Source: Vicinamibacteria bacterium (GTDB taxonomy: Bacteria > Acidobacteriota > Vicinamibacteria > Marinacidobacterales > Marinacidobacteraceae). Taken from it: DNA of 64,000 bases. The translations under genes and the position numbers were made by a program. A model generated the notes under the pieces. The model worked only from the letters and a program-made list of their open reading frames with translations. It was not told the DNA's origin and did no database searches. How positions within the stretch are numbered: position 1 is the first letter of the stretch; each line of letters starts with the position of its first letter. The DNA lies in contig CAXXLQ010000004.1 of assembly GCA_963668695.2 (NCBI GenBank), positions 3,840,001 to 3,904,000 on the forward strand, read 5' to 3'. Below, piece after piece: positions 165-60,731 of this stretch.

Positions 165-429
165 GGAAGCCCGAGCCAGAAGGGCTGGGGGTCGGGTGAC
201 CCCGTCCCCCGTCCCTTCCGCTCCGGGGTCTCCGCGGTGCTGGCGCCCCGCTCCGGAAGCGAGCGGCGATGCATCCCGCCTGAACCGCGACGCTTCGCGT
301 CGCTCATCGTTGCGCTTCGGTCGGAATACACCAGGTATTCCTCCCTCGCGCGCCTTGTCAGCCGGGCGCCTCGCCCCCACCGGGAGGACTGGCCGCTCTC
401 GGTGCTCACCTCACCCTATCCACGGACTG
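165..429. mobile_element. MITE-like repeat copy (partial/degenerate) fused to one 90-bp unit; contains one micro-insert at 373-394
   Basis: Core ttgcgcttcggtcggaatacaccaggtattcctccctcgcgcgccttgtcagccggg shared with other copies; reverse complement resembles the 30008-30711 copy. Confidence 0.75.
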
Positions 430-457
430 CCAATCATCCAAGAGAGGAAGAAACGGA

Positions 458-1474
458 ATGACCAAAGCTCGGAACAACGGAATGGGACGCCGCGAGGCAC
501 TCCGTCGCCTTTCGGCCGGAACCGGCGGAGCGGCGCTCGGCGCGACCGGAGGGACGGCCTTCGGCGCGGGGGTGGCAGCCTGCGCCCCCATGGGCTCGGA
601 GGCCGCCCCGGACCCGGGACAGCGGTTCCGGACGATGCTCGGCGCCGGAGACCCGGTGATCTGCCCGGGGGCCTTCGACGTCATCTCGGCCCGCCTGATC
701 GTCGAAATGGGCTTCGAGACGGTGCTCATCGGCGGAAGCGCCGCGTCCGCGGCGAACTGGGGAGTCCCGGATTACGGACTCGCCTCCATCACCGAGCTGA
801 TCGAGATCGCCTCCCGCATCGCGGGGAGCGTCCCGGTTCCCTGCTTCGCGGACGCCGACGACGGGGGCGGCAGCCCGCTCGCGGTGGCGCGGGCAGTCCG
901 CGGCTACGAGCGGGGCGGCCTCGCCGCGGTGATGATCGAGGATCACGTCCAGGCGAAACACCTCGGAGAAGGCGGTGTGCTGATCGAGGTGGGCGCGATG
1001 CAGGACAAGATCCGCGCGGCGGTGGACGCCCGGAAGACCGGCATGATGCTGGTTGCCCGCTGCGATTCCGTTTCCATCGGGCAGAGCGAGGCGGAGGCCA
1101 CGGAGCGAGGCGCCGCCTACGTCGAGGCCGGAGCCGACCTCCTCTTCTTTGCCGGACTGCCTCCCGAGAGCATGGGCGCGGTAGCAGAGGCGGCCGGCCG
1201 GCCGGTGATCGCGAGTGTCCACGACACACCCATGACCACTCTCCGGGAAAACCGGGTCCCGCTCGTCCTCTACGCGGGACAGATGCTCCGCCTCGCCCTC
1301 GGGGCGATGCGCCAGGGACTCCAGGACATCCACGACGGCGCGACCTGGCCCGGCTACGCCGACCGCGCCCTTCCGGGCGACACCTACCAAAACCTCATCC
1401 AGTCCGGGAAGTGGCGCGAAGACGCCGGCCGCTACAACCTCGTGGATGAGAACGGCCGCCAGGTCCGGGGGTAG
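458..1474 (+). CDS. Isocitrate lyase/PEP mutase superfamily protein with Tat-like/lipoprotein signal
   Basis: PGAFD, ADADDGGG, IEDH and VARCD motifs; N-terminal GRREAL followed by VAAC; SD agagagga upstream. Confidence 0.85.
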   Translation: MTKARNNGMGRREALRRLSAGTGGAALGATGGTAFGAGVAACAPMGSEAAPDPGQRFRTMLGAGDPVICPGAFDVISARLIVEMGFETVLIGGSAASAANWGVPDYGLASITELIEIASRIAGSVPVPCFADADDGGGSPLAVARAVRGYERGGLAAVMIEDHVQAKHLGEGGVLIEVGAMQDKIRAAVDARKTGMMLVARCDSVSIGQSEAEATERGAAYVEAGADLLFFAGLPPESMGAVAEAAGRPVIASVHDTPMTTLRENRVPLVLYAGQMLRLALGAMRQGLQDIHDGATWPGYADRALPGDTYQNLIQSGKWREDAGRYNLVDENGRQVRG

Positions 1475-1497
1475 AACGAGGCGCGAAACGCCAGCCA

Positions 1498-1600
1498 GGA
1501 GCGCCCCCCTTTCAAAGCGGCACGCCAGCGCGGAGGAACGCCGCTCTTCAGAGCGGCATCGCCCGCGCATGGGAACGCCGCTCTTCAGAGCGGCATCGCC
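1498..1600. repeat. REP-like hairpin cluster (ggaac-gccgctct-tc-agagcggc-atcgcc x2 plus one degenerate copy)
   Basis: Identical direct copies at 1535-1563 and 1572-1600, each with an 8-bp stem. Confidence 0.75.
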
Positions 1601-1672
1601 AGCCTGAGGCTGGCGAAACTCCCGTAGCCATCCCAGACGACGGCGACGGCGCTGCGAAAGAATCCAGGATCC

Positions 1673-2260
1673 GTGAACCCCCTCCCCGGGAAACAGATCA
1701 CCCCCCGCAACCGGCAGGAATGGCGCCGTTGGCTGGCCGCCAACCACGGCACGGTCCCCGAGGTCTGGGTCGTCTTCTACAAGAAAACCGCCCAGCGAGC
1801 TGGTCGGCCCACCCTCACCTACGACCACGCCGTCGAGGAGGCGGTCTGTTTCGGCTGGATCGACGGCCTCAAACGGCGCGTTGACGACGAACGATACGCC
1901 CACCGCTTCACACCGCGGAAACCGGACAGCCGGTGGTCGGAGAGCAATCGGGTGCGGCTCGAAAAAATGAGGTCCCGGGGCCTCATGACTCCCACCGGTG
2001 AGGAAGCGGTCGAGGCCTCGATACGGTCCGGCGCCTGGGAGAAACCCGCGACCTCGGCACCCCCGGACGTCCCGGCGGAGCTACTCGCCGCCCTCGAAAG
2101 CGATCCGCAGGCGCGCGCCGGCTGGTTGAGGCTCCCCCGCTCGGAACGGCGCCGCTACGAAACCTGGATCGGCATCGCCAAGCGGGCCGAAACCCGAGCC
2201 CGGCGGCTCACCGAGAGCCTGGACCTCCTCCGCCGCGGCGAAAAACTCGGAATGCGCTGA
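1673..2260 (+). CDS. YdeI/OmpD-associated family protein
   Basis: WRRWL..NH, AVEEAVCFGWIDG, FTPRK..SRWS..N, AKRAETRARR motifs. Confidence 0.9.
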   Translation: MNPLPGKQITPRNRQEWRRWLAANHGTVPEVWVVFYKKTAQRAGRPTLTYDHAVEEAVCFGWIDGLKRRVDDERYAHRFTPRKPDSRWSESNRVRLEKMRSRGLMTPTGEEAVEASIRSGAWEKPATSAPPDVPAELLAALESDPQARAGWLRLPRSERRRYETWIGIAKRAETRARRLTESLDLLRRGEKLGMR

Positions 2261-2289
2261 ACCATCTCCCGCCGGTGTAATTGTAGTTC

Positions 2290-2310
2290 GGATAGAATAG
2301 TATTCTATCC
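2290..2310. promoter_or_regulatory. Palindromic operator overlapping a -10 box of vapBC (probably leaderless)
   Basis: Perfect 10-bp inverted repeat ggatagaata-g-tattctatcc directly before ATG 2311; contains TAGAAT. Confidence 0.75.
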
Positions 2311-2969: not shown

Positions 2970-3007
2970 CACCTGGCCTCGTGTGTCTCGCCGCCCTATG
3001 GGCGGCG

Positions 3008-3033
3008 ATGCCGGCCGGAGGCCGGCGGTCCCT
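3008..3033. repeat. REP-like hairpin (gatgccggccggaggccggcggtccc), empty-site version
   Basis: Imperfect palindrome between convergent genes; related copies at 59113-59158 and 60531-60556. Confidence 0.65.
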
Positions 3034-4154: not shown

Positions 4155-5963
4155 TCAGCAGCCGACGCAGGCGTTGTTGTTCTTGGCGCCGTAGCTGGCG
4201 AGGAGCGCGATCGTTTCCGGGAACGGATTGATGCGCTGCACCGGACCGTTGGCGAGGTCGATGGTCGTCTGTCCGGTGCGGGCGACAGCCAGCGGGTCAG
4301 CGCCGTGGTCGATCAGGTACTGCACCATCTCGATGTCGCCGCGCGACGCCGCGTGGTGGATCGTGGAGTAGCCGTTGTAGTCGCGAACGGTCGCATCCGC
4401 CCCGCATTCCTCCACCAGGTATTTCACCGCCGGCAGCCACGCGTCGGGCGCGTGCCGGTGAGAGTTCGCGGCGAGTCCGAGGCCGTATCCCACTCCGGCC
4501 GCTGCATGGAGCGGGTAGACCGCCGGATCCCCATACTCGGCGGAAGGCAAGCCCGACGGATCCGGGGCTCCCTCTTCGATGAGCATCGGGAGACGACGAC
4601 GCTCCGGCACCTTGACCGTGGGGAGGTGGGGATCCGCCCCGTTCGCCACCAGCAGCTTCATGGCCGGGATGTCGAGCGAATAGGCGGCGCGCCAGAAGGC
4701 GGTCGCTCCGCTGCGGTCCACCCCGAGTTGATCCACGTCGTACACCGTGTACCAAAGCGAATTGTCGATCCGCGCGTTCACGTCGGCACCGGCGTCGATG
4801 AGCACCTGCATGAGTTCGAGATGCGAGACCTCCTGCTGCAGGTAGTCGGCCGGCTGCGGGTGACGCGCTTTCGGGATCCACTGTGTGTTGATCGTCCCGT
4901 AGAGCGGAGTCGCGTTCTGCGAATCCGCCATCGTCGGGTCGGCGCCCTGCTCGAGCAACCTCATTGCGAGGTCGAAATGACCGTTGATCGTCGCCATGAG
5001 CAATGGGGTGGTGCCGCTTCCCTCGGCGCGCTGGTTCAAGTCAGCGCCGGCGTCGAGCAGCGCCAGCGCGCTGTCGATCTGGCCTTCGCGGGCCGCGAAC
5101 AGGAGGGCGGTCAACCCGCCGTGGGTGCCGACGCGTTCCTCGTAGGTCTTGGGCTTCGGCTCGTTCGGATCACGGCTCTCGTCCAGGTCGGGGTTGAGCG
5201 GATCCGGGGGAAGACCGGCAGCACCCGTGCTGGTCCCGCTCTTGCCGACGCGGTCGGTCCCGTTGGCGGGGAGCGGACGCTCGGCCTGGATGATGCCGGT
5301 CCCTCCGCGCACCTCGGCAAGACGGGCCTGCCGCTCGCGGCGCTCTGCCCGGTCGAACCGCGAACGCTCGACGACGTCCAGGACATCCGCGGTGGCGGAG
5401 GCGTCCGCGCCGGCGTCCAGCAGGGCTTTGATCGCTTCGACGCGGCCCCGGACCGCTGCGAACATGAGCGGAGTGAGGTCCCACGCGGTTTCCCGCGCAT
5501 CCACGGGAGCTCCGTGGTCGAGAAGTGAAACCACCGTTTCAGGGACGCCGGCGGTTGCCGCCAGGTGAAGCGGTTGGGCGCCGGTAGAGGTCATGGCGTC
5601 GGCAGGGGCGCCGGCGTTGAGCAGAGCTTCGGCGACTCCGGCCTTACCGGCCGCCGCCGCCACGTGCAGCGGCATGTGGCTCCCGAGACGCGTGGTGGCG
5701 CGGACGTCCGCACCCGCCGCGATCAAGACCTCCGCAACCTCGCGGTTCCCCGTCTTCGCCGCCCAGTGCAGCGCCGTGAACCCGTCGCCCTGCGCCGCGT
5801 TCACGTCCGCGCCCGAACGCAGCTCCGCCTTCAGCGTCTCCAGGTCACCGCGTTTCGCGGCGTCCAGCACTGGCGACAGCAGCGCCGCATACCCGGCTCC
5901 GACCAGCACTCCCAGCACTGCGAGCAGTGCCGCCAGGCCGATCCATCGCTTTTTGATCTTCAT
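4155..5963 (-). CDS. Exported ankyrin-repeat protein (copy 1), C-terminal CVGC
   Basis: Many TALH/TPL...GADVN repeats; N-terminal hydrophobic segment. Confidence 0.9.
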   Translation of the reverse strand: MKIKKRWIGLAALLAVLGVLVGAGYAALLSPVLDAAKRGDLETLKAELRSGADVNAAQGDGFTALHWAAKTGNREVAEVLIAAGADVRATTRLGSHMPLHVAAAAGKAGVAEALLNAGAPADAMTSTGAQPLHLAATAGVPETVVSLLDHGAPVDARETAWDLTPLMFAAVRGRVEAIKALLDAGADASATADVLDVVERSRFDRAERRERQARLAEVRGGTGIIQAERPLPANGTDRVGKSGTSTGAAGLPPDPLNPDLDESRDPNEPKPKTYEERVGTHGGLTALLFAAREGQIDSALALLDAGADLNQRAEGSGTTPLLMATINGHFDLAMRLLEQGADPTMADSQNATPLYGTINTQWIPKARHPQPADYLQQEVSHLELMQVLIDAGADVNARIDNSLWYTVYDVDQLGVDRSGATAFWRAAYSLDIPAMKLLVANGADPHLPTVKVPERRRLPMLIEEGAPDPSGLPSAEYGDPAVYPLHAAAGVGYGLGLAANSHRHAPDAWLPAVKYLVEECGADATVRDYNGYSTIHHAASRGDIEMVQYLIDHGADPLAVARTGQTTIDLANGPVQRINPFPETIALLASYGAKNNNACVGC

Positions 5964-6014
5964 GCCCCGTCCTTCTCCTCCGGTCAGAGTCCTCGTTGCG
6001 GATTCCGGTCCTTG

Positions 6015-7403
6015 CTACACCGCCTGCGAAAGCGAGAACGCGCCCGTGCTGTTCCCGAAGGTTTCCAGATCATCCATCCCCAGCTTGTGCGCCAACGTCA
6101 GCATCACGTTCGCCAGCGGGGTCCCGGGCTCCGCACGCAGGTGCAGGTTGTGCTCCAGCGCTCCGTTCGCGCCTCCCGCCACAAAGAACGGAACACGCTT
6201 GTGGTTGTGGATGTTCGGATCCCCCATCGGAGACCCATACAGGATCATCGTCTTGTCCAGCAGCGTCCGATCCTCTTCCTGAATGCTCCGCAGCTTCTCC
6301 ATGAAATACGGAACCAGGCTCACGTGATACCGGTTGATCCGGCCCAGAACCTCAACCCGCTCGGGATCGTTCCCGTGGTGCGAGGCCGGATGGAACGCCA
6401 TCGATTCGCCGCTGTCCGGATACACCCGGCTCGACGCGTCCCGGCCCAGCTTCAAGCTGAACACCCGCGTCATGTCCGACTGGAAGGCCAGCGCCTGCAG
6501 GTCGAACATGATCTTCACATGCTCGTCGAACGAGTCCGGAACCCCTGACGGAGCGTCCGGAAGCTCACGAAGCTCCCCGCTCGTGTTCCGTTCCACGATC
6601 CGCTCGATCCGACGCTCCATCTCCCGGACGTCCGTCAGGTACCGGTCCATCCGGCGCACATCCTGCGGATCCAGCGCTCCCTTCAGCCGCTGCACCTCCG
6701 AACCGATGAAGTCCAGAACGCTCCGGCGCGCGTTCTGCCGCGCCACCCGGCCCTCCGGGGTTCCCCCCGCGCCGAACAACTGGTCGAACACGATCCGGGG
6801 ATCCCGCGTCATCGGAAGCGGCTCCGTCGGCGACGCCCAACTGATGGTGTCGGTGTAGACGCAGGCATACCCGTAGGCGCAACCACCCGCCTGGTCCACC
6901 GTCTCGATGCAGAGCTGCATCGAGGGAATCGGTGTGTCCTGGCCGAAACGGTTCGCATACATCTGATCCAGCGAGGTCCCGGCAAAGACATCCGAACTCT
7001 CGGTCTGCTTGGGATACGACTGGGTCAGGAACGCCGCGCTCGAGCGGAAGTGGTCTCCACCGATCTCACGCGCCGTGCGCGCCTCCGCGGGCTCCACATC
7101 GCAATCGCTCACGATCGTGACGTAGTCCCGGACGGACTCCAGGGAGCTGAGCGCACCCTTCGACAGATCGAAGTCCGCGCCCTCTTTCTCCGGAGTCCAC
7201 AGATGCTGCGATCGGCCGTACTTGTTGCTGCCCGCCGACCCGTGAACGATCTCGATCGCCACGAGCCGCGTCGGATCCTCTGCGGTCGGCTTCGCGATCA
7301 CGCTCGCCGGAACCATCGCGTCCAGGAACGGCAACGCGACCGTTGCTCCCGCTCCCCGAAGGAACGTCCGCCGTGGGAGGCTCTTGCCGGTCAGATAGTT
7401 CAT
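6015..7403 (-). CDS. DUF1552 domain protein (copy 1), Tat signal
   Basis: LPRRTFLRGAGATVALPFLDAM N-terminus; TSLDQ, YTDTISW, HPASHH motifs. Confidence 0.9.
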   Translation of the reverse strand: MNYLTGKSLPRRTFLRGAGATVALPFLDAMVPASVIAKPTAEDPTRLVAIEIVHGSAGSNKYGRSQHLWTPEKEGADFDLSKGALSSLESVRDYVTIVSDCDVEPAEARTAREIGGDHFRSSAAFLTQSYPKQTESSDVFAGTSLDQMYANRFGQDTPIPSMQLCIETVDQAGGCAYGYACVYTDTISWASPTEPLPMTRDPRIVFDQLFGAGGTPEGRVARQNARRSVLDFIGSEVQRLKGALDPQDVRRMDRYLTDVREMERRIERIVERNTSGELRELPDAPSGVPDSFDEHVKIMFDLQALAFQSDMTRVFSLKLGRDASSRVYPDSGESMAFHPASHHGNDPERVEVLGRINRYHVSLVPYFMEKLRSIQEEDRTLLDKTMILYGSPMGDPNIHNHKRVPFFVAGGANGALEHNLHLRAEPGTPLANVMLTLAHKLGMDDLETFGNSTGAFSLSQAV

Positions 7404-7695
7404 GGTGTTCTCCTGTCAGGGCGCCCCGCCGTCCCGGTGTTCCGGTGGGGCTGGAGTCGCTGTGTAGAGAGCCCGAGATCCTCGGGTGACTTGGATGATC
7501 CGGCCCAGGGTGGAACCGGCTGGGGACCCGCCGTTGCAGGGATACGCCCCCCACAAAGTACGGGATCGATGGGCTCCCATAACCGGACTAGGATAGGAAA
7601 TCAACCGTCCCGGCGCAAGGGGCATCCGGCCCGGTCGAGAACTGCTGCGAGAGCCGACTCCGGGAACCGGAGAGCGCCCCCCCAAGAGGAGGAGA

Positions 7696-10247
7696 TCAGG
7701 GCTCGCCCGCGACCGTGGTTTCGATCTCTGCGGGGACCCCGCCCTTCATCTGGAAGGCCGGGCTCGTCGCCACCCCCAGGATGAACGCTGACATCCGGTA
7801 GTCCGAAGCCTCCGCCTGCCGGACGATCTCCCGGATCAGCGGCTGATCGAAATACTCCACCCGCCGGCCCAGCGCGTACGCCATCAGGTTCTCCGTGAAG
7901 GTTCGAAGCAGCGGCGTCGGACGCTTCAGCAGCGCCTCCCGCAGGTCCCCGATGTTCTGGATCGGGGTCCCGTCGTAGAACTCACCCGAAGCGTCAATCG
8001 GCTGGCCCGCGTCCTTCACCCGCACTCTGCCCGTCACGTCGAACTGCTCCAGCGCCAACCCGATCGGGTCCATCATCCGGTGGCACGAACGGCACGCCGG
8101 GTTGTCCCGGTGGATCTCCAGCCGTTCACGCGCGGTCAACTCCCGGCCGTTCTCCGACGCTGCCGTCGCGTCCAGATCCGGAACGTCCGGCGGCGGTGGC
8201 GGCGGCGGACTGCCCAGCAGAACCTCCATCACCCACTTCCCACGAAGCACCGCCGACGTCCGATACGGATGGGACGTCAGCGTCAGCATGCTCCCGTGGG
8301 CGAAGATCCCACGCCGGTTCGGGTCCTGATACGACACCATCCGGTGCTCCGGACCGGCAATCCCCTCCATCCCGTAGTGCTTCGCGAGGCGCTCGTTCAC
8401 GAACGTGTAGTCCGCGGTGAACAGGTCGAAAACGCTCCTGTCCTCCGTCACCAGGTGCTGGAAGAACCGCTCCGTCTCCTCCACCATCGCCGTCTTCAAC
8501 TGCTGGTGGAAGTCCGGATACAACCGAACGTTCGGGTTGATCTTCTCCAGATCCTGCAGCCGGAACCACTGATACGCGAACCGCTTCGCCAGCGCTTCCG
8601 AGCGCGGGTCCGCGAGCATCCGACGAACCTGGGTCTCGAACGCCGCAGGATCCGACAACTGCCCCGCCTCGGCCGCATCGAGCAGCTCGTAGTCGGGGAT
8701 CGTCCCCCACAGGAAGAACGACAGGCGCGACGCCAGGTCGGTATCCGTCAGCCGGTACCCGAACTCCGCCTCCCGCGGGTCCAGCGGCTCCTCGATCCGG
8801 AACACGAAGTTCGGGCTCGCGAGGATGCCCTCCACTCCCATCCGGATCCCTTCTTCGAAGCCGACCGTCTCGGCCCCCACGTCGTAGAGCAACATCAGCG
8901 CCGCCCGACTTTCGTCGTCGAGACTCCGGCGATAGGCCAGCCGGCCCAACCGCGAAAGGATCTCCTCGGCGCACGGCCGTGCTTCGTCCGCTGCCAGCGG
9001 GCGGCAGGCGAAGATCGCCTTTCGGCTCGGCGTCTCCGACACCCCCGTGGTGTCGAACGGTCCCCGAACCAGAATGTCCCGCAGATGGGGAAGGCTGTGG
9101 ATCCCGTAGGTGAGCGCGATGTTGGTGCTCGCCAGCGACCATTCGTGCGGCGAGATCAGATCCAGCGTCGCGCCGTCAAACTGGCGCAGGAACGCAGCGG
9201 CCACCGTCCTGGGACCGGCCTTGATGAAGAGGGGCTCCGTGATCATCGTCGCCCCGTTGGGATCCGAGGTGTGCATCCACGGGTCGATGGAGAGGAGCGC
9301 GACCCGCTCTCCGTCGATCGAGATCTCGAGCTGTTCCGGGTTCTCCTCGGAGTTCAACGCTCCGGCGGCGGTGCCGACGACAGGGCCGCACACTTCGTGG
9401 TGCAGCGAAACGCGGAAGACGTAGTTCCCGTCCGCGGCAAAGGTGTGATCCACTGCGATCCCGCCGCGGGTGCCGTACGGGGCTCCCTCGACCTGAACCC
9501 GCTGCGAAGCCCAACGGGAAACGAAGTAACTGGTCTCGGCCGGTGCGGCGTCGGGGTCCCCTACGGCCAACCGGCTGATCTCGCCCGCCGCGCGCAGATA
9601 GGAGTCCATGAGCGTGGCCGACAGCAACTGGACATCCGCGATGTTGTCGAAGTTCGCGCTGATCGTGTCCTGCGGCAGATACTCGGCGGCATCCACGGCG
9701 AGCGCCAGGAGATCCCGGATGGCCGCCGTGTACTCCGCCCGGTTGAGCCGCTGGAAAGAACGGCGTCCCGGATTCGGTTTCGCCTCCGCGCTCGCGTCAA
9801 GCTGGGTTTCGAGCGACCCGGCGACCTCGGCGAGCACCTCCTCTCCGGGGCGCCGGGCCCCCGGCGGCGGCATCATGCCGAGCCGCAGCTTCGAGACCAT
9901 CTTTTCCGCGAGGGCGGCATCTTCCGGCGCGTTCCCGGCGTCGAAACCGGAGAGCGTCATGTTCCCGGTCTTCATGCGGTCGTTGTGGCAGACATGCAGT
10001 AGGTCCGCAGCATCCGGTTGTGGGCGGCCGCGTTTTCGGGGGACACCGCCACAACGGCGCGCTCCGTCGCTGACGGCTCCCAGGACCGAACGGTGGCGAC
10101 CGTCGGCCCGGAAGCGGTGGGCTCCGATCCTTCCAGCCGGGCCAGCCGGGCTTCAAGCCCGGGCGCCGCCGCCGCGACGGAAGACGCGAGCAGGCCGGCG
10201 AAGAGAACCGGAATCAGCGAAACCGCTTCCAGCCTGGATGTCCCCAT
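7696..10247 (-). CDS. DUF1592-family protein (PSD/PSCyt domains, c-type heme motifs), copy 1; apparent 1-nt frameshift at ~9993
   Basis: RLNRAEY, LASRLSFFLW, RGKWV, CRSCH..MDPIG; N-terminal ORF 9972-10247 joins if one base is restored in CMVCH, as in the paralog at 16115-16129. Confidence 0.85.
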
Positions 10248-10256
10248 CGTGGCGCC

Positions 10257-12290
10257 TCAGCAACCCACGCAGCGGTTGTTGTTTTTCGCCCCGTAGGTCT
10301 CGAGGAGGGCGATGGTCTCCGGGAAGGGGCTGATCCGCTGCACCGGCCCGTTCGCCAGGTCCACCGTGGTCTGCCCGGTCCGGGCGATTGCCAGCGGGTC
10401 GGCGCCCTTCGAGATCAGGTATTCGATCATCTCGTTGTCGCCCCGCGAGGCCGCGTGGTGGATCACGCTGTAGCCGTTGTGGTCACGGGCGTCGGGATCG
10501 GCGCCCAGCTCTTCCACGAGGTACTTCACGGAGGGCATCCAGGCGTCGGGGGCGTGGCGATGCGAGTTCGCGGCCAGCCCGAGCCCGTACCCGACGCCGG
10601 CAGCGGCGTGTACGGGATGGACCCCGGGGCCCCCGTGGAGAACCTCAGGGAGGCCCGAGGGATCTTCCTCAGGCTCTTCCGCCGTCAGGTCGGTCAGCCC
10701 CCGGAGGGTCCGCTCGGGAACCTTGATGGTCGGGATCCCGGGGTCCGCGCCGCGCGCGACCAGCATCTTCATCGCGGGGATGTCGAGCGCGTAGGCCGCG
10801 CGCCAGAAGGCGGTGGCCCCGGCCCGGTTCACCCCGAGCTGGTCGGTGTTGTAGGTGCTGTACCACTGCTTCCGCTCGAGCCGGGAGTTCACGTCCGCCC
10901 CGGCATCGATGAGCGCCTCCATCAACTCGATGTGCGAGGTCTGCTGGCGGAGGTGATCCGCGGGCTGGGGATGGAAGGGTTGCGAAATCCAGCGGGCGTT
11001 GATCGCGCCATACAGCGGAGCGCCGCCGGAGACGTTCTTCAGGTTCGGGTCCGCACCGCGTTTGAGCAGTTCCATTCCGATGTCGTAGTGGCCGTTGATC
11101 GCCGCCATCAGGAGAGGTGTGGTGCGGTGGCCCTCGGCCCGCTGGTTGATGTCGGCCCCACCGTCCATGAGGGCGACGGCGGCTTCCAGATGGCCGTCAC
11201 GAGCGGCGAGCAGCAGAGCCGTCAGGCCGCCGTGCGTCCCGACCAGTTCGGCGTAGCGGAGCGGCTGGAGGCGGTTCCGGTCCCGCTTCCTGCTCGCTCT
11301 GCGCTTCTTTGCCTCTTCGATGGCCTTGGCCCTGACGAGATCGTCCTCGGGATGACCGTGCGCCGCGGCGTGCTCGTCCTCCTCCGCCGCCAATTCCTCC
11401 GCGGTCTTTGCGGTCTTCAGATCAGCAAGGTCCTTCGCAAGGTCCGCAGAACCGGATTTCCCGGTGCCGGCGTCGGCTCCCGTGGAAGCGGTCGCGGGGG
11501 CCTCCTCGATGCGTCCCTTCTCGTTCGCCGCCTTGGCGGCCGCGGCCCGCGCCCGTCGCTGGGCCTCCCGGGCCTTCTTGTCGCGTTCCCGCTCGTCGTA
11601 GATCACGCCCGCTGCGCCCCGTCCCTGGTCGATCCGCGCCTGGCGAGCCCGACGCGCGATGAGATCCCGCTCGGCGCGGGCCGCGACGTCCAGTACCGAA
11701 GCGGTGATCGAGGGATCGGCGCCCGCTTCCAGAAGCGTCGCGACGGCCGCGGTGCGGCCCACGGCGGCCGCGAACATGAGCGGGGTCTGTCCCCACTGCG
11801 GCTCGACGGCGTCGAGGTTGGCGCCATGCTTCCCCAGCACCGTGAGGGTCGGTGTGCTGCCGGAAGCCGCGGCGAAGTGGATCGCCCGGGCTCCGGTTCC
11901 GGTCGGCTCGGCGATCGGGGCGCCGGCCTCGAGGAGGACTTCGGCAACTCCCGCCTGGCCGGCCGCCGCCGCCACGTGCAGCGGCATGTGGCTCCCGAGG
12001 CGCGTGGTGGCGCTGATGTCCGCACCCGCCGCGATCAAGACCTCCGCAACCTCGCGGTTCCCCGTCTTCGCCGCCCAGTGCAGCGCCGTGAACCCGTCGC
12101 CCTGCGCCGCGTTCACGTCCGCGCCCGAGCGCAGCTCCGCCTTCAGCGTCTCCAGGTCACCGCGCTTCGCGGCGTCCAGCACCGGCGCGAGCAGCGCCGC
12201 ATACCCGGCTCCGACCAGCACTCCCAGCACTGCGAGCAGTGCCGCCAGGCCGATCCATCGCTTTTTGATCTTCCGCTTTCCAATCTTCAT
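10257..12290 (-). CDS. Exported ankyrin-repeat protein (copy 2), C-terminal CVGC, with charged insertion
   Basis: Paralog of 4155-5963; 5' ~300 bp nearly identical. Confidence 0.9.
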   Translation of the reverse strand: MKIGKRKIKKRWIGLAALLAVLGVLVGAGYAALLAPVLDAAKRGDLETLKAELRSGADVNAAQGDGFTALHWAAKTGNREVAEVLIAAGADISATTRLGSHMPLHVAAAAGQAGVAEVLLEAGAPIAEPTGTGARAIHFAAASGSTPTLTVLGKHGANLDAVEPQWGQTPLMFAAAVGRTAAVATLLEAGADPSITASVLDVAARAERDLIARRARQARIDQGRGAAGVIYDERERDKKAREAQRRARAAAAKAANEKGRIEEAPATASTGADAGTGKSGSADLAKDLADLKTAKTAEELAAEEDEHAAAHGHPEDDLVRAKAIEEAKKRRASRKRDRNRLQPLRYAELVGTHGGLTALLLAARDGHLEAAVALMDGGADINQRAEGHRTTPLLMAAINGHYDIGMELLKRGADPNLKNVSGGAPLYGAINARWISQPFHPQPADHLRQQTSHIELMEALIDAGADVNSRLERKQWYSTYNTDQLGVNRAGATAFWRAAYALDIPAMKMLVARGADPGIPTIKVPERTLRGLTDLTAEEPEEDPSGLPEVLHGGPGVHPVHAAAGVGYGLGLAANSHRHAPDAWMPSVKYLVEELGADPDARDHNGYSVIHHAASRGDNEMIEYLISKGADPLAIARTGQTTVDLANGPVQRISPFPETIALLETYGAKNNNRCVGC

Positions 12291-12341
12291 GCCGCGTCCC
12301 TCTCTTGGGTCAAAGTCCCTGATGTGGATCCCGCTCCCGGG

Positions 12342-13730
12342 TTACACCGCCTGCGAGAGCGAGAACGCACCCGTGCTGTTCCCGAAGCTCTCCAGATCAT
12401 CCATCCCCAGCTTGTGCAGCAACGTGAGCATCACGTTCGCCAGCGGGGTCCCGGGTTCCGCACGCAGGTGCAGGTTGTTCTCCAGCGCTCCGTTCGCGCC
12501 TCCCGCTACAAAGAACGGAACGCGCTTGTGGTTGTGGATGTTCGGATCTCCCATCGGAGACCCATACAGGATCATCGTCTTGTCCAGCAGCGTCCGATCC
12601 TCTTCCTGGATGCTCCGCAGCTTCTCCATGAAATACGGAATCAGGCTCACGTGATACCGGTTGATCCGGCTCAGGAGTTCCACCCGCTCGTCGTCATTCC
12701 CGTGGTGTGAGGCCGGATGGAACGCCGTCGATTCGCCGCTGTCCGGAAACACCCGGCTCGACGCGTCCCGGCCCAGCTTGAGGCTGAACACCCGCGTCAT
12801 GTCCGACTGGAACGCCAGCGCCTGCAGCTCGAACATGATCTTCACGTGCTCGTCGAACGAGTCCGGAACCCCTGACGGAGCGTTCGGAAGCTCACGAAGC
12901 TCCCCGCTCGTGTTCCGTTCCACGATCCGCTCGATCCGACGCTCCATCTCCCGGACGTCCGTCAGGTACCGGTCCATCCGGCGCAAATCCTGCGGATCCA
13001 GCGCTTCTTGCAGGGTCCGCACCTCTTCACCGATGAAGTCCAGAACGCTCCGGCGAGCCTTCTGCCGCGCCACCCGGCCCTCCGGGGTTCCCCCCGCGCC
13101 GAACAACTGGTCGAACACGATTCGGGGATCCCGTGTCATCGGAAGCGGCTCCGTCGGCGACCCCCAACTGATGGTGTCGGTGTACGCGCAGGCATACCCG
13201 TAAGCGCAACCACCCGCCTGGTCCACCGTCTCGATGCAGAGCTGCATCGAAGGAATCGGCGTGTCCTGGCCGAAACGGTTCGCATACATCTGATCCAGCG
13301 AGGTCCCGGCAAAGACATCGGACCCTTCGGTCTGCCTTGGATGGGACTGGGTCAGGAACGTCGAGCTCGAGCGGAAGTGGTCCCCGCCGATCTCCCGCGC
13401 CGTCTCGGCCTCCGCGGGCTCCACGTCACAGTCGCTCACGACCGTGACGTAGTCCCGGACCGGCTCCAGGGAGCTGAGCGCACCCTTCGACAGATCGAAG
13501 TCCGCGCCCTCTTTCTCCGGAGACCACAGGTGCTGCTCACGACCGTACTTGTTGCTGCCCGCCGCCCCGTGGACGATCTCCACCGCCACGAGCCGCGTCG
13601 GATCCTCCGCCGTCGGCTTCGCGATCACGCTCGCCGGAACCATCGCGTCCAAAAACGGCAACGCGACCGTGGCCCCCGCTCCCCGCAGGAACGTACGGCG
13701 TGGAAGGCTCTTGCCGGTCAGGTAGTTCAT
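12342..13730 (-). CDS. DUF1552 domain protein (copy 2), Tat signal
   Basis: 462 aa, closely similar to 6015-7403. Confidence 0.9.
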   Translation of the reverse strand: MNYLTGKSLPRRTFLRGAGATVALPFLDAMVPASVIAKPTAEDPTRLVAVEIVHGAAGSNKYGREQHLWSPEKEGADFDLSKGALSSLEPVRDYVTVVSDCDVEPAEAETAREIGGDHFRSSSTFLTQSHPRQTEGSDVFAGTSLDQMYANRFGQDTPIPSMQLCIETVDQAGGCAYGYACAYTDTISWGSPTEPLPMTRDPRIVFDQLFGAGGTPEGRVARQKARRSVLDFIGEEVRTLQEALDPQDLRRMDRYLTDVREMERRIERIVERNTSGELRELPNAPSGVPDSFDEHVKIMFELQALAFQSDMTRVFSLKLGRDASSRVFPDSGESTAFHPASHHGNDDERVELLSRINRYHVSLIPYFMEKLRSIQEEDRTLLDKTMILYGSPMGDPNIHNHKRVPFFVAGGANGALENNLHLRAEPGTPLANVMLTLLHKLGMDDLESFGNSTGAFSLSQAV

Positions 13731-13813
13731 CGCTGTCTCCTTGTGGTCAGACTGACTTTCTCTCTTGGCTTTCTCGTTTTGACTCTTCTCGGTTTGATTC
13801 TCTGTAGGGCTTC

Positions 13814-19923: not shown

Positions 19924-19927
19924 GGGT

Positions 19928-20166: not shown

Positions 20167-20170
20167 GACG

Positions 20171-26346: not shown

Positions 26347-26523
26347 CGGAAATCCCTCCGGGAGAAGCGGGCGATCGTACCCGGATTTCGGTGGGGCCAG
26401 GCACCTTCAGCGCTGTCCGGGGAGGCGAAATTGCGCATCTCGCCCCGCTCCGGGGGGCGGTTCCCGCCCCCACCAGGAGAACTGGCCGGCGTTCCCGCAT
26501 TCCCGGCGGATAATCGGCGGGTC

Positions 26524-30002: not shown

Positions 30003-30007
30003 CGGCT

Positions 30008-41140: not shown

Positions 41141-41143
41141 TCT

Positions 41144-41644: not shown

Positions 41645-41698
41645 AACCGCATCCCTTTCCCGAGGGGGAAGGGCGCGCGGGGAAACTACCCTAACGGG

Positions 41699-44582: not shown

Positions 44583-44620
44583 CGGCCCGTCGCGCGGGTG
44601 TCGCCGCAGTCTCCTTCGAC

Positions 44621-48318: not shown

Positions 48319-48409
48319 CTCCCCCGCGCGCCTTGTCAGCCGGGCGCCTCGCCCCCACCGGGAGAACTGGCCGCTCTCGGCGCTCACCCGGGTTCCACCA
48401 CCGGCTGTT
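48319..48409. mobile_element. MITE-like right-end fragment with micro-insert; supplies the GH3 stop codon
   Basis: gcgccttgtcagccggg...caccaccggctgtt. Confidence 0.75.
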
Positions 48410-50024: not shown

Positions 50025-50256
50025 GGCGCCGGTGGACAGAGCCAGGCGGCCCAGTTCTCCCGGTGGGGGCTCGGCCGGCGATCCATCCCGGCTGAGCGCT
50101 GCGCCCCACTTCGCTCGTCGTTGCGCATCGGTCGAAATAACCCGGGCCAGTTCTCCCGGTGGGGGCTCCTCCCTCGCGCGCCTCGTCAGCCGGGCGCCTC
50201 GCCCCCACCGGGAGAACTGGCCGGCCTCGGCGCTCACCTTGCTCTGACCACAGGAA
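50025..50256. mobile_element. Degenerate MITE-like copy with three micro-inserts
   Basis: Core retained; inserts at 50048, 50145 and 50201. Confidence 0.8.
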
Positions 50257-52404: not shown

Positions 52405-52421
52405 CCCTTCCGATCTTGACT

Positions 52422-52627
52422 CTAGCAGCCTGTGGACAAGGTCACGCGGCGTTCGGCTGGCGATGCATCCCGGCTGAACCGCGCCTCTGTGAGGCGCTCA
52501 TCGTTGCGCTTCGGTCGAAATACACCAGGTATTCCTCCCGCGCGCGCCTTGTCAGCCGGGCGCCTCGCCCCCACTGGGAGAACTGGCCAGCCTCGGCGCT
52601 CACGCCACTTTGTCCACAGGCTACTAG
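52422..52627. mobile_element. MITE-like element, full length, CTAG at both ends, one micro-insert
   Basis: ctagcagcctgtggacaa ... ttgtccacaggctactag. Confidence 0.85.
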
Positions 52628-52707
52628 CATTCGCCATACCTCGAGACGGACGGCCGGCAGCCTGCGCGCCAGCGGCCGAATTCCTGGAAGAAGGAGGGAA
52701 GCGCTCC

Positions 52708-56031: not shown

Positions 56032-57230
56032 GAACTCCACGCTCTGGCGGGGTCTGTTGCGGGGACTCCACGCTGGAGCGGTGGAACTCCACGCGGCACG
56101 CTACTCCACGCTGGAGCGGGGTCTGCGGGCGCGCTACTCCACGCTGGAGCGGGAACTCCACGCTGGAGCGGGATCTGTTGGCGGGAACTCCACGCTGGAG
56201 CCGCCGAACTCCACGCTGTAGCGGGATCTGTCGGCGGGAACTCCACGCTGGAGCCGCCGAACTCCACGCTGTAGCGGGATCTGTTGGCGGGAACTCCACG
56301 CTGGAGCCGCCGAACTCCACGCTGTGGCGGGGTCTGCTGGTGGGAACTCCACGCTGGAGCCGCCGAACTCCACGCAGCGGGATCTGCCGGCGGGAACTCC
56401 ACGCTGGAGCCGCCGAACTCCACGCTGGAGCGGGTCTGTTGGCGGGAACTCCACGCTGGAGCCGCCGAACTCCACGCTGGAGCGGGATCTGTTGGCGGGA
56501 ACTCCACGCTGGAGCCGCCGAACTCCACGCTGGAGCGGGTCTGTTGGCGGGAACTCCACGCTGGAGCCGCCGAACTCCACGCTGGAGCGGGATCTGTTGG
56601 CGGGAACTCCACGCTGGAGCCGCCGAACTCCACGCTGGAGCGGGATCTGTTGGCGGGAACTCCACGCTGGAGCCGCCGAACTCCACGCTGGAGCGGGATC
56701 TGTTGGCGGGAACTCCACGCTGGAGCCGCCGAACTCCACGCTGGAGCAGGATCTGTTGGCGGGAACTCCACGCTGGAGCCGCCGAACTCCACGCTGGAGC
56801 GGGGTCTGTTGGCGGGAACTCCACGCTGGAGCCGCCGAACTCCACGCTGGAGCGGGATCTGTTGGCGGGAACTCCACGCTGGAGCCGCCGAACTCCACGC
56901 TGGAGCGGGGTCTGCTGGCGGGAACTCCACGCTGGAGCCGCCGAACTCCACGCTGGAGCGGGGTCTGTTGGCGGGAACTCCACGCTGGAGCCGCCGAACT
57001 CCACGCTGGAGCAGGATCTGTTGGCGGGAACTCCACGCTGGAGCCGCCGAACTCCACGCTGGAGCGGGGCCGGCGGACGGAACTCCACGCTGGAGGGGGT
57101 TCGGCGGATGGGGACTCCACGCTGGAGGAGGTGGAACTCCACGCTGGAGCCGCGAAGCTCCACGCTGAAGCGGGTTCGGCGGGCGGGAACTCCACGCTGG
57201 AGCCGCGAAGCTCCACGCTGGAGGAGGTTC
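56031..57230. repeat. ~1.2-kb satellite: 17 regular ~53-bp units with degenerate flanks (~45 copies of gaactccacgctggag)
   Basis: Unit ggaactccacgctggagccgccgaactccacgctggagcgggatctgttggcg; linkers nearly invariant. Confidence 0.95.
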
Positions 57231-57408
57231 CGCGGGCGGCGACAGGACTGTCAGAAATTCCGTGTGTAGGCCGGTGACTCTGGAAACTGCGTTCGGTTTG
57301 CTTCCCGGAATTGTATGACCGGGCCGATGGGGATTTGGCCGGCGCGCCCGAGGGGGCCGGCGCGGAGCGGGTAGGGACGCCCGATGCGCGTGAAGCGCGT
57401 GGTTGCGC

Positions 57409-58840: not shown

Positions 58841-58883
58841 GTAGGAACTCTCCAGGATTCGCAGTGGCTATTCCGAGAAGCGC

Positions 58884-58900
58884 ATTATCGCACCGATAAT
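58884..58900. promoter_or_regulatory. Probable parDE operator/promoter palindrome
   Basis: attatcg-cac-cgataat in an AT-rich patch upstream of parD. Confidence 0.6.
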
Positions 58901-59112
58901 CATCATTTTCATGTCGAAATCGGATCGGGCCGGGGATGAAGTACGCAACGACACTATAGGCCTCGCCCGCCTCCGGCGGGCGAGGCCGGCCTCCACCGGG
59001 AGAAACGCCCATGATCGGGTCCTCCCGTACACCCCGCCTGGTACGAAAAAGGTGGAGCGGCACTCACATTGGCAGAGCCCGGCATCATCGGCGCTGGTTT
59101 CGCGCTCCCGCG

Positions 59113-59158
59113 CGATGCCGGCCCCCACCGGGAGAACTGGCCGGAGGTCGGCGTTCCC
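59113..59158. repeat. REP-like hairpin interrupted by the micro-insert
   Basis: gatgccg-gcc-cccaccgggagaactg-gcc-ggaggtcggcgttccc versus the empty copy at 3008-3033. Confidence 0.75.
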
Positions 59159-59273
59159 GTGCCTGCGCGCCATCCGCTCTTTCGGGGGCCCGGCGCGACT
59201 GGATTTTCACAGCAACTGGCCGGCGGTCCCGTGCCCACGCGCCTCCCCGACAGGCGCCGCGCCCTCCAGGCCG

Positions 59274-60461
59274 TCACCCGAGGTCGAGCGCTGCCGGCGA
59301 ACACAGCGTCCAGCGTTCCCGGATGCGAACCGGTTGCTCTGGCGCGGTGAGGGAAACGACCTGTCCGGGCTGCCAGTTCGGGTCGGAGATCCGGTCGAGC
59401 GGGGCCAGGCGGTCGTGGCGGGGCGAGCCCAGCTTGACCTCGACCGGCCAGACTCTGCCGGCGTGCTCGATCAGGAAGTCAATTTCCTGGCCGTCGCGGG
59501 TGCGCCAGAAATAGATGTCCACCTCGTGCGCCCGATGGCGAAACTGCCGGAGGATTTCCGAAAACACCTGGGTCTCGAACAGGGCGCCGGCCATCGGCCC
59601 GAGACGCGCCTGCTCTGTGCTCCTCCAACCGCCGAGCCAGGCGGCGAGACCGGCATCCAGGAAGTAGAGCTTCGGATTCTTGGTCATCCGGCGCGTCCGG
59701 TTCGTGAAGTACGGAAAGAGCAATCGGATGAGAAAACTGTCTTCCAGCAGGCTGAGCCATTCCCGAACCGTTGTCGGGGACACGCCAGCGTCCCGCCCCA
59801 AATCGTGGTAGTTCACGACCTGGCCGGTGCGGAGCGCGGCGAGCCGCACGAACGTTTCAAACTCCCGGCGTTTGCCGATTCTCAGCAGTTCGCGAACATC
59901 CCGCTCGATATAGGTCTGCACGTAGGAGGCAAGATAGAGATCGCGGGTGGCCCCATCCCCGGTTCCGGACAACCGCGGGAAGCCGGTCTCGAGCATTCTG
60001 CCGAAGTAGTCGCCGGGTGACAGCAGGTGGGGCAACCTCTTTTCCTCATCCGAGAGCCCGAGCAGGTTCAGGATCGCGACCCGGCCGGCCAGGGTCTCGG
60101 TCACGCCTTCCATCACCCGGAAGTTCTGTGAGCCGCTTAACCGGATGGCGCCGGGTTCGAGGCCACCCTCGTCCACCATCCGCTTGATGGGGCTGAGCAG
60201 CTTCGGCGCATACTGGATTTCATCAATTACGAACGGCGGTCTGAGGTCGCGCATGAACAGAACCGGATCCCGATTGGCGCGCTCGCGGACGTCAAGGTCG
60301 TCCAGGTTGGCATAGGTGTGGCTTCCGGAGCACCGATGGAGCAGCGAACTCTTGCCGACCTGTCGCGGCCCGAGCAGCAACCACACCGGGAAGAGCCGCA
60401 GCTGCTCGGCCGGAGCGTCGAGTACCGGTTGAAGGGTCCGGTGGATCCAGTCGAGCGGCAT
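59274..60461 (-). CDS. AAA_14 ATPase with DUF4143 domain
   Basis: GPRQVGKS Walker A, IDEIQ, LSGSQ, TYIERDV, PKLYFLDAG, EIDF, EVK motifs. Confidence 0.92.
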   Translation of the reverse strand: MPLDWIHRTLQPVLDAPAEQLRLFPVWLLLGPRQVGKSSLLHRCSGSHTYANLDDLDVRERANRDPVLFMRDLRPPFVIDEIQYAPKLLSPIKRMVDEGGLEPGAIRLSGSQNFRVMEGVTETLAGRVAILNLLGLSDEEKRLPHLLSPGDYFGRMLETGFPRLSGTGDGATRDLYLASYVQTYIERDVRELLRIGKRREFETFVRLAALRTGQVVNYHDLGRDAGVSPTTVREWLSLLEDSFLIRLLFPYFTNRTRRMTKNPKLYFLDAGLAAWLGGWRSTEQARLGPMAGALFETQVFSEILRQFRHRAHEVDIYFWRTRDGQEIDFLIEHAGRVWPVEVKLGSPRHDRLAPLDRISDPNWQPGQVVSLTAPEQPVRIRERWTLCSPAALDLG

Positions 60462-60588
60462 ATGTGCAGTTTACTTTGGATCTGCCGCTCACGAGGATCA
60501 AGAAGATCTCGCGCTTCCCGCCAGCGGCGAATGGCGGCCTGGAGGCCGGCGGTCCCTTGCCGGCGCGCCGTACCGGGGCCGGCGGTCC

Positions 60589-60731
60589 CTAGCAGCCGGT
60601 GGTGAAACCCAGGCGGCCCAGTTCTCCCGGTGGGGGCTCCTCCCTCACGCGCCTTGTCAGCCGGGCCCCCACCGGGAGAACTGGGCCTCGCCGCCCTCGG
60701 CGCTCACCCGGGTTCCGCCACCGGCTGCTAG
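60589..60731. mobile_element. Internally deleted MITE-like element, CTAG at both ends, two micro-inserts
   Basis: ctagcagccggtgg ... ccaccggctgctag; the central ~100 bp is missing at an insert. Confidence 0.85.

Follow-up and report, generated by a model that had tools for sequence, protein, structure and literature searches.

A short fixed DNA unit occupies many alternative sites within hairpin repeats of a Vicinamibacteria genome

A 64,000-nt stretch of DNA (the window) from a Vicinamibacteria bacterium of the family Marinacidobacteraceae (assembly GCA_963668695.2, contig CAXXLQ010000004.1, positions 3,840,001 to 3,904,000) was analysed for a short insert that a first-pass annotation had noticed inside other repeats. 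The insert is built on the 16-mer CCCACCGGGAGAACTG and is called the unit here. It lies in many alternative positions of a miniature inverted-repeat transposable element (MITE), in hairpins of the repetitive extragenic palindromic (REP) type and in two protein genes, and its presence changes in place between sister genomes. The analysis confirmed the observation, in a stronger form than first claimed. The reading that we prefer, at a probability of about 0.45, takes the unit for a discrete micro-element that a postulated trans-acting activity puts into hairpins. The source genome is designated G000 and its window-bearing contig C4; other G numbers stand for related genomes.

Copies in the window and in the genome

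At up to two mismatches, the 16-mer had 25 matches on the two strands of the window. Dinucleotide-preserving shuffles of the window gave a mean of 0.10, and 0/100 reached 25. The 24 near-identical copies of the first-pass annotation were all found, in both orientations and at the places and strands given there (chance expectation 0.1). The 25th match, at 16211, was not on its list; it has two mismatches and no GCC flanks, looks like a chance match and was treated as one. Two pairs of empty and filled sites (24836 and 24670 in MITEs, 3008 and 59113 in REPs) were, on direct reading, as described.

The G000 assembly has four contigs (4.10 Mb, 67.5% G+C; 91.7% complete by marker genes, contamination 9.34%). 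At up to two mismatches it contains 1659 matches, 819 on the plus and 840 on the minus strand, and 1325 of them are exact. Contigs C1 and C3 duplicate parts of C4 (C4:304-421 kb and 3505-3538 kb). The first ~148 kb of C4 (1-148038) duplicates its last ~130 kb (3783-3914 kb), the whole window included, and the duplicate of the window sits at C4 ~66-130 kb. These haplotig-like duplicates are 97.6-99.7% identical, inflate raw counts by ~7% and differ in unit number (87 vs 93 copies). Since the assembly is partly redundant, whole-genome counts are stated non-redundantly: 3.77 Mb hold 1236 exact copies, 1492 at up to one mismatch and 1552 at up to two, against 0.006 exact copies expected from base composition.

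Structure of the unit

In a sequence logo of 1595 copies, conservation was confined to positions -3 to +18 (G 0.88, C 0.86, C 0.99, the 16-mer, G 0.97, C 0.60 or G 0.39, C 0.92). The invariant core is CC-CCCACCGGGAGAACTG-G (19 nt), the only part that contexts in six genomes have in common, and the usual form is GCC-16mer-G(C). The conserved part of the insert exceeds the 16 nt first given: among the 1595 copies, 99% have C at -1 and 97% have G at +16. The flanking GCC and GGC are able to pair, closing a 15-nt loop. This 3-bp closure is all the self-complementarity that is conserved; the unit itself is no palindrome. The -2 and +16 positions covary. Where +16 is C, -2 is G in 32/42 copies; the pair C:G occurs in 1265 copies, and G:G in 165, the second members of tandems. 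Paired changes keep three bases on each side pairable (GCC/GGC or GGC/GCC), and the flanks therefore belong to the unit. The flank variant GGC-16mer-CCC was found in 31 copies, in two different REP types. Inverted pairs of units form 20-bp hairpins (z -5.5 and -6.3).

Units also stack, with a tandem period of exactly 18 nt, as 139 doublets, two triplets, one run of four and one of five; all runs of three or more sit at one MITE slot. One internal variant is common, with position 12 of the 16-mer changed from A to G. Of 1219 single copies 80 carry it, as does the first member of 81 of 129 doublets, and it recurs in relatives and in differing contexts. The doublets were of the types (G,A), 81, and (A,A), 48; (A,G) and (G,G) never occurred.

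A relative of the unit was also seen, in the G001 and G008 counterparts of window 44600-44660 and at window ~59050-59080. It shares the first 13 bases and then continues as ...GAGAAACGC(C/T)CATGATCGGG and not as ...CTGG; in some 12 copies in the genome the continuation is GAGAAACC. This relative may represent a sister repeat, or partial copies may derive from it.

Host repeats and slots

Among 1352 non-redundant blocks, 916 have both flanks in one MITE family, 247 have one flank there, and 189 have neither. The host element is a typical MITE with terminal inverted repeats (TIRs) and a CTAG/TTAA-type duplication. Empty, it is ~185 bp long, its TIRs start with CAGCC(T/G)GTGG, and a clean empty site in G001 displays the CTAG duplication. 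The first-pass annotation had proposed at least four positions within the MITE; there are several indeed, and their real number is at least 6-8, in both orientations. At slot alpha (GGA/ATA/CCGGG, slashes marking the junctions), ATA is replaced by GCC-16mer-GC. At slot beta (CGA/AC/GCC), AC is replaced by GCC-16mer-G. Slot gamma (GGC^GCC) holds one to five units, and slot delta shows a gain of 19 nt. Slot epsilon and rarer slots come in addition, including the opposite orientation within the same arm.

Blocks with neither flank in the MITE are almost all REP hairpins of the form GCCGG-loop-CCGGC, with several loop types and in both orientations. Here the unit sits immediately 5' of the 3' arm (GAAG/A/CCGGC becomes GAAG/GCC-16mer-G/CCGGC), an arrangement that a simple pattern fits in 123 of the 189 blocks. 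About one third of the REP1 hairpins is estimated to be filled.

A common rule holds across all contexts, those in genes and in other genera included: the unit of ~20 nt stands in for two bases (GC, AC, AT, TT or CG), which adds 18 nt, or, when CCGG comes next, for one base, which adds 19. Compared with empty sites, 1-3 host bases are replaced, and most sites have no target duplication. The earlier picture of insertion by GC/GCC microhomology holds in part. Most MITE slots show a net gain of 18 nt, whereas REPs and a single MITE slot gain 19, with host bases replaced and not duplicated. A GCC duplication fits some sites (the delta slot, REP2); elsewhere the unit takes the place of 1-3 unrelated bases (AT, AC, TT, CG, A) and brings its GCC...G(G)C flanks along.

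A census was made in which slots were located by their host flanks only, blind to the unit. Slot alpha (n=585) was empty in 285 cases, filled (+18) in 287 and otherwise altered in 13, and slot beta (n=490) was empty in 217, filled in 255 and otherwise altered in 18. The gamma/delta region (n=588) was empty in 219 cases and longer by 18 (74), 19 (106), 36 (89), 37 (32) or 55 nt (40), with 28 others. No further common indel appeared in this census of MITE slots. The 16-mer was exact in 258 of 273 filled alpha slots and 233 of 239 filled beta slots (non-redundant). Slot occupancy is ~50%; in 253 full non-redundant MITEs, slot occupancies were 0.60, 0.45, 0.11 and 0.40, and 37 of 48 possible slot combinations were present. 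With several MITE slots, several REP families and two protein genes as its sites, the insert is not an integral module of one repeat.

Changes in place between sister genomes

The window region is collinear with G001 (~92-97% identity), G004 and G008. When filled and empty sites were aligned, orthologous MITEs and near-identical haplotigs differed cleanly by the unit. At 41380-41680, G000, G001 and G004 are nearly identical save for three clean differences, at gamma, alpha and epsilon, in one full orthologous MITE (approximately 41408-41640). The tandem doublet at slot gamma (41452-41485, minus strand) exists in G000 only, exactly 36 nt being missing in G001 and G004. Slot alpha (41519-41534, plus strand) is filled in G000 and G001 and empty (ATA) in G004, while the adjacent cctgg polymorphism stays unchanged. 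Slot epsilon is filled in G001 only.

Another full MITE (approximately 19931-20163, TIR CAGCCTGTGG..., flanks TTAA/TTAG), within the aligned region 19880-20260, is shared by G000 and G001 and absent at this locus in G004. Both genomes have slot beta filled (19957-19972, minus strand). The gamma doublet (20086-20119, plus strand; G11 then A11, period 18) occurs only in G000, with none in the orthologous G001 MITE, and alpha is filled only in G001. Over the two MITE loci that could be aligned end to end between G000 and G001, four of the six occupied slots differ, all cleanly.

Further loci showed exchanges between slots. At 29990-30330, the gamma doublet of G000 (30055-30088, minus strand) faces, in the G004 MITE, a single copy in opposite orientation at a neighbouring position. 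The slot alpha unit of the same region (30122-30137, plus strand; ATA replaced by GCC-16mer-GC) forms a 20-bp inverted repeat with the 30055-30088 copies. At 52420-52630, delta is filled in G000 (52570-52585, plus strand, one mismatch), and G004 and G008 have a copy in gamma instead; the whole MITE is absent in G001, where the CTAG insertion site is empty. Within G000 itself, the haplotigs C3 and C4 (97.6% identity over the aligned segment) differ in one MITE by a clean +18 (cagccgg/gc/gcctc vs cagccgg/ACC-16mer-G/gcctc). These changes of state between sister genomes bear out the view that the oligonucleotide is an entity of its own, entering many unrelated hairpin sites.

Unique genes were targets as well. 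In a gene for an AcrB-family transporter of the resistance-nodulation-division (RND) type (G000 C4:393139-395949; Pfam ACR_tran on the G001 orthologue), the unit lies in frame and is translated as ...GEPG-PHRENW-RDAA.... The same insertion is present in G001, and exactly 18 nt are absent in 4/4 others (G004, G008, G009, G010). The target, CCCG/CG/CGGG, is a perfect 10-bp palindrome whose central CG has become GCC-16mer-G. The CoaBC gene of G010 (Pfam Flavoprotein and DFP) is 18 nt longer, with the unit, than 5/5 orthologues, at a junction not placeable to the base. Besides the RND gene, G000 has no second copy deep inside a coding-like frame; the remaining 50-odd frame matches are upstream ends of stop-to-stop frames or haplotig duplicates. 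Two further copies may lie at gene starts or just inside them, one at C4:3267756, where a coding-like frame (3266619-3267806, minus strand) has its 5' end close by, and one at C4:1639308.

Distribution among relatives

The exact 16-mer was present in 21/41 related genomes searched. All 15 genomes of the same genus carry it, with 5 to 1325 copies each, as do five of nine genomes from other genera of the family, there in different slots; 0/16 genomes of two sister families of the order have it. Its sequence is unchanged across at least five genera of one Vicinamibacteria family, and complete or near-complete relatives carry from 1 to 1325 copies. A scan with one genome per species gave at least 101 stretches with the 16-mer, 80 of them listed. 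Among the matches listed, multi-copy ones belong to metagenome-assembled genomes (MAGs) titled Vicinamibacteria, 'Candidatus Marinacidobacterium', 'Candidatus Poriferihabitaceae' or sponge-derived Acidobacteria, and single matches outside these MAGs are at the level expected by chance. Viral contigs had 0 matches to the 20-mer.

The number of exact units per MITE core was high (1.4-2.1) in G000 (1325 units, 631 cores), G001 (605, 307), G004 (665, 424) and G008 (557, 386), and also in G009 (87, 44) and G014 (55, 28). It was low (0.06-0.19) in G010 (6, 94), G007 (5, 52) and G012 (6, 31). Expressed per MITE core, this is 0.06 units in G010 versus ~2 in G000, G001, G009 and G014. G018 and G019 share the MITE family, and perfect units sit there in other slots and in other REP types (CCGGG/AT/GCATCG and CGCGCC/TT/GTCAGCC, for example, with AT and TT replaced by GCC-16mer-G). 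A decayed copy is fixed at slot beta in G018, with perfect copies elsewhere. The sole copy in G020 lies within a MITE.

The motif-bearing MAGs come from several projects. All or part of window 40600-42400 is contained in 20 public runs from 10 studies, and short-read contigs of four runs from four studies carry the repeat. The form that skips both units (41450 to 41487) occurs somewhere in all four runs; these contigs break at the MITE and so do not show presence or absence at this particular locus.

Search for an enzyme, a donor or a larger element

Six-frame searches of G000 gave 0 candidates for a reverse transcriptase (RT; PF00078, control positive in 3/14 reference genomes) and 0 matches for a Y1-HUH transposase (PF01797, control positive in 6/14). 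The TnpB zinc-ribbon (PF07282) was over the cut-off in 0/16 genus genomes. A serine recombinase (PF00239) was found in 3/16 genus genomes, unrelated to unit load, and not in G000. As mobilisers, RAYT/HUH transposases (RAYT, REP-associated tyrosine transposase), TnpB and serine recombinases thus found no candidate in G000. Ku was considered as a discriminating gene and rejected: it is found in G000 but in 15/16 genus genomes whatever their unit load. As a separate observation, a large serine recombinase (814-823 aa, resolvase domain at the N terminus) has seven identical or nearly identical copies in G001 and three in G008, is absent from G000, and is probably an active element of G001 and G008.

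The only IS110-family element of G000 (C4:~482108-483884; 415-aa protein, DEDD_Tnp_IS110 and Transposase_20) is placed in the 3' arm of a REP2 hairpin (…ccggaggtc/IS/cggcgttccc; IS, insertion sequence) and not at a unit, which speaks against IS110 as mobiliser. Neighbouring REPs in the array around it carry the unit. Seven DDE_Tnp_1 genes are present in G000. An autonomous IS with the TIRs of the MITE was sought and not found; 39 TIR pairs 700-3500 nt apart had no recurring length. A 1486-bp IS at C4:2955078 was rejected as the MITE source; its TIRs are unrelated.

The proposal that the unit is the footprint of a larger recombinase-mobilised element did not hold. The sequence CCCACCGG occurs 2190 times, ~1560 of them continuing as the unit; the remainder is scattered and, by simple arithmetic, near chance, so the halves are not apart above chance. 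Pairs of units 450-6000 nt apart had no recurrent distance beyond that of neighbouring MITEs. Split halves and a larger element bounded by units were rejected on these grounds. A unique, syntenic master copy was not found; copies with unique flanks are REPs, MITE fragments or the RND gene. No 9-mer of the unit occurs in any of 58 tRNA/tmRNA genes, and scans of the window with Rfam (gathering thresholds) and for tRNA gave nothing.

Other copies and features of the window

The remaining window copies follow the same slots. A G11 variant (CCCACCGGGAGGACTG) fills slot delta of a 5'-truncated MITE at 376-391 (plus strand) and is shared with G001. Two units 50 nt apart (23113-23178, plus strand), each 5' of a GCCGACCTCCAGGTCGGC REP hairpin, belong to a REP array in which the other haplotig has one unit fewer. 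At 24681-24721 (minus strand), two units 25 nt apart lie in one MITE arm, one in slot delta (24681-24696) and one in slot gamma (24706-24721), where the left flank is ACC; in the MITE copy next to it (~24830) both slots are empty. A unit with one mismatch sits in a REP1-type hairpin at 26469-26484 (plus strand), filled in G000 and G004, and G001 has the empty REP (…GGTCTGAAGACCGGC…). At 44644-44659 (minus strand), the unit adjoins a REP1 hairpin (GCCGGTCTGAAG/GCC-16mer); G001 and G008 have only 13/16 bases there and a different continuation. Slot delta of a truncated MITE is filled at 48354-48369 (plus strand), and the G008 MITE is empty here. The unit at 59124-59139 (plus strand) lies in a REP2 hairpin as GCCG/GCC-16mer-GCC/GGAGGTCGGC, and an empty REP2 lies at window ~3000-3025.

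Units recombine with each other, which yields MITE deletion derivatives. The MITE at 50052-50219 holds three units, at beta (50052-50067, minus strand), alpha (50148-50163, minus strand) and delta (50204-50219, plus strand). In its G001 counterpart (at 49985) the interval from beta to alpha is deleted, and one hybrid copy is left. A short MITE derivative at 60619-60683, absent as a whole from G001, G004 and G008, contains two units. The one at 60619-60634 (minus strand) joins an alpha-type to a beta-type flank, an internal deletion between two copies; the other (60668-60683, plus strand) is in slot gamma.

Several other repetitive features were also recorded. Window 56034-57293 is internally repetitive and matches its G001 counterpart at registers ~53 nt apart (73-79% identity). 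At 26560-26645, tandem repeats of the cagaccgaacc type at a gene start vary in copy number among G000, G001, G004 and G008. Window 4155-16168 contains paralogous gene blocks (4155-5145 resembles 10257-11256, for example) and includes a 677-aa ankyrin-repeat protein (10257-12290, minus strand). Ankyrin-repeat proteins are common in sponge symbionts. Elsewhere in G000, C4:2803874-2826790 is a tandem array of ~22.9 kb (period ~351-357 nt, self-matches of 85-94% identity), probably a giant repetitive gene; a spike of GC skew in the 50-kb bin at 2.80 Mb coincides with it.

Proposed insertion in trans and the points against it

If the unit is a micro-element inserted in trans, it would enter GC-rich DNA that forms hairpins or palindromes, always complete and sharply bounded. 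A trans-acting activity, which we infer, would recognise the unit, tolerating A or G at position 12, supply copies of it and join them at nicks or breaks of extruded hairpins. Such joining would resemble end-joining more than transposition, given the loss of target bases and the lack of a duplication. The signature as a whole (fixed unit, sharp ends, 1-3 bases lost and none duplicated, either orientation, stacking, hairpin loops or palindrome centres as targets) fits best the joining of an oligonucleotide-sized piece at a nick or break. In favour of this reading are the defined ends and fixed size of the unit, its clean changes in place, the two unique gene targets, its near-independence of flanking polymorphisms, the constraint on the 16-mer, the paired flank changes and the load that differs by lineage. 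Resident units would then be carried along by the multiplication of their host MITEs and REPs, and directly oriented copies would recombine, deleting MITE interiors.

A bolder form of this reading is put forward tentatively. The unit, at 18-20 bp, might be the smallest mobile DNA so far, with no gene and no inverted repeats. A sequence-specific enzyme system of sponge-associated Vicinamibacteria would copy or excise it and write it into extruded hairpins and the centres of palindromes in place of 1-3 bases. Such writing would be a natural oligonucleotide-writing activity apart from the catalogued transposases, recombinases and RTs, and it might be on in some lineages, with ~2 units per MITE, and off in others, with 0.06.

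A number of observations weigh against insertion in trans. The searches above turned up neither an enzyme nor a donor intermediate nor a master copy, so the active-insertion step is one that we purely infer. There is no strand bias between replichores, which a single-strand, lagging-strand mechanism would predict, and DNA folds of six single-unit sites were not better than shuffles (z -1.73 to +0.34). Conservation within the genome alone fails to single the unit out, since many positions of the MITE vary just as little. Slots are positively associated (odds ratios 4-6). The junctions differ in type (20-for-2, 20-for-1, 21-for-3), which copying guided by microhomology would likewise produce. 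It is clear that multiplication of the host repeats accounts for many of the copies.

Multiplication and possible conversion of the host repeats

Several of these points lead to a different explanation, in which the 18-20-mer is a module of MITEs and REPs. Rare illegitimate events at stalled hairpins, by microhomology or template switching, would have made the new slots with no dedicated enzyme, and host multiplication with homologous gene conversion or quasi-palindrome template switching would have spread them over ~600 MITEs and several hundred REPs. We regard this as less likely than insertion in trans and as its main rival. Template switching at hairpins without RecA is a well-established source of mutations. 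The 916 of 1352 blocks with both flanks in the MITE, most others being in REPs, suit it well. So do the 1-3-nt variation of the junctions and their overlap with GCC/CCGG microhomologies, and the recombination of units with each other that gave the deletion derivatives at 60619 and, in G001, at 49985. The absence of (A,G) and (G,G) doublets indicates an inherited haplotype, and the (G,A) doublet (81/129) is propagated as one piece. Substitutions cluster in the flanks around changed slots at 19880-20260, resembling conversion tracts. The REP at 26469, filled in G000 and G004 and perfectly empty in G001, requires two gains or a loss that restored the replaced base; the latter would be gene conversion, by which the pattern is most easily explained.

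The linkage of unit and host haplotype argues against host-repeat recombination alone, since conversion would carry neighbouring single-nucleotide polymorphisms (SNPs) along. In 534 non-redundant MITEs, the state of slot alpha was nearly unlinked to 24 flanking SNPs (minor-allele frequency >=0.2; mean r2 0.026, maximum 0.066), with r2 0.001 for a SNP 4 nt away and 0.003 for one ~10 nt away. Among themselves, the same SNPs had a mean r2 of 0.34, and 28% of pairs exceeded 0.5. Slot beta behaved in the same unlinked way. The argument is weakened by some of the flanking SNPs lying in CCGG-type sites, which are possibly hypermutable. A mosaic origin is also at odds with the unit being the sole frequent indel in the MITE censuses, and with new contexts, the two coding sites included, in which CC-16mer-G always stands exact and free of donor-flank sequence. 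From genus to genus the 16-mer stays the same while its slots differ, and G010 has just six exact units for its 94 MITE cores, part of a load per MITE that is specific to each lineage. The presence of 37 of the 48 slot combinations, and associations between slots that are independent of distance, likewise argue against host-repeat recombination alone.

Less probable readings: selection, RNA templates and artefacts

It is improbable that the 16-mer is a recognition site (a DNA-uptake sequence or protein site) whose alleles are favoured by drive or selection, the insertions being rare accidents. Exact conservation across at least five genera, one tolerated 'dialect' (A/G at position 12) in several species, equal use of the strands and the strong hairpins of inverted pairs would all suit such a site. 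Its copies arise by inserted bases and not by substitution, however, and the motif is nearly missing from coding DNA, with one deep coding copy in G000. A range of 1 to 1325 copies among relatives is unlike a family-wide uptake signal. Selection would explain maintenance and not the writing of the same 19-20 nt into new sites.

Templating by RNA, which the first-pass annotation had offered as an example, is very improbable. Here an RT or RT-active polymerase would copy a fixed non-coding RNA into hairpin nicks, and the fixed sequence, sharp ends, 18-nt stacking (runs to five) and long-term constancy do fit one conserved template. The six-frame search of G000 for RVT_1 was negative with positive controls, no unique syntenic master copy was found, the only copy of G020 is in a MITE, and no tRNA or tmRNA gene shares a 9-mer with the unit. 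A single template would not suffice, as the A/G variants and the flank variant are each present in more than one context. An adapter, primer or assembly error as the source of the motif is practically refuted, despite the redundancy of the G000 assembly (haplotig-like duplicates, contamination 9.34%), by its presence in MAGs of several projects, in 21/41 relatives and in contigs of four runs from four studies, and by the RND gene that carries the unit in frame at the same codon position in two sister genomes.

Comparison with known repeat families

No paper with the 16-mer was found in a full-text search, nor, judged from titles and abstract openings, any description of such a unit. It departs in defining features from the REP/RAYT, MITE, mosaic-module, retroelement and IS200/IS607-type families. 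With REPs and REPINs (paired REPs) of the RAYT system it shares being short (~20-40 nt), extragenic, high copy, hairpin-associated and clade-conserved, and it stands beside genuine REP hairpins. It is extragenic, high copy and clade-specific with 1236 exact copies, one deep coding copy and confinement to one family. Unlike REPs, the unit is no palindrome (3-bp closure), sits inside REPs, MITEs and genes, and is accompanied by no Y1_Tnp gene in G000; a clean insertion polymorphism of single units in situ also sets it apart.

Bacterial interspersed mosaic elements (BIMEs) of E. coli, pneumococcal BOX with its variable number of boxB, and the neisserial intergenic mosaic element (NIME) with dRS3 are mosaic intergenic repeats. 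The unit resembles them as a short module of variable number and combination inside composite repeats, with tandem number varying at one position. It differs in its many alternative positions, both orientations, unrelated hosts and coding DNA, and in being uncoupled from the haplotype. Like MITEs it is non-autonomous, high copy and presumably mobilised in trans, but it is 10 times shorter, without TIRs or target-site duplication, and target bases are lost. Rickettsia palindromic elements (~100-150 bp) can sit in frame in functional protein genes. The unit shares this in-frame presence; it has 18 nt, is non-palindromic and is coding in one of ~1350 G000 blocks.

DNA-uptake sequences (DUS), uptake signal sequences (USS) and HIP1-type oligomers arise by substitution and spread through coding DNA. 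Exactness, thousands of copies, equal strand use, clade-wide conservation and dialects are common ground; the unit, in contrast, arises by insertion, is nearly confined to repeats and differs 1000-fold in abundance among relatives. IS110/IS1111-family elements are reported to prefer REP hairpins as insertion targets (Tobes and Pareja 2006, PMC1525189). Hairpin repeats as preferred targets are a likeness, and the IS110-family element of G000 is itself in a REP arm. REP-targeting ISs are autonomous, 1-2 kb long, with a conserved core and precise excision, whereas the unit is gene-free and not at IS ends.

Significance

For work on these sponge symbionts, ~1500 identical 16-mers in ~600 MITEs are a hazard in assembly and binning. 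Even if the copies arose by conversion and template switching of the host repeats, they would offer an unusually clean system for short-tract conversion and hairpin template switching in an uncultured symbiont. Loaded and nearly unloaded sister genomes make the gene or genes responsible directly searchable. If the unit inserts on its own, it would set a new lower size limit for mobile DNA. The enzymology would be new to science, recognising a 16-20-nt sequence and joining it seamlessly at DNA hairpins, and it would bear on genome stability (the 'disarming' of palindromes), on DNA-writing tools and on the evolution of REPs and MITEs.

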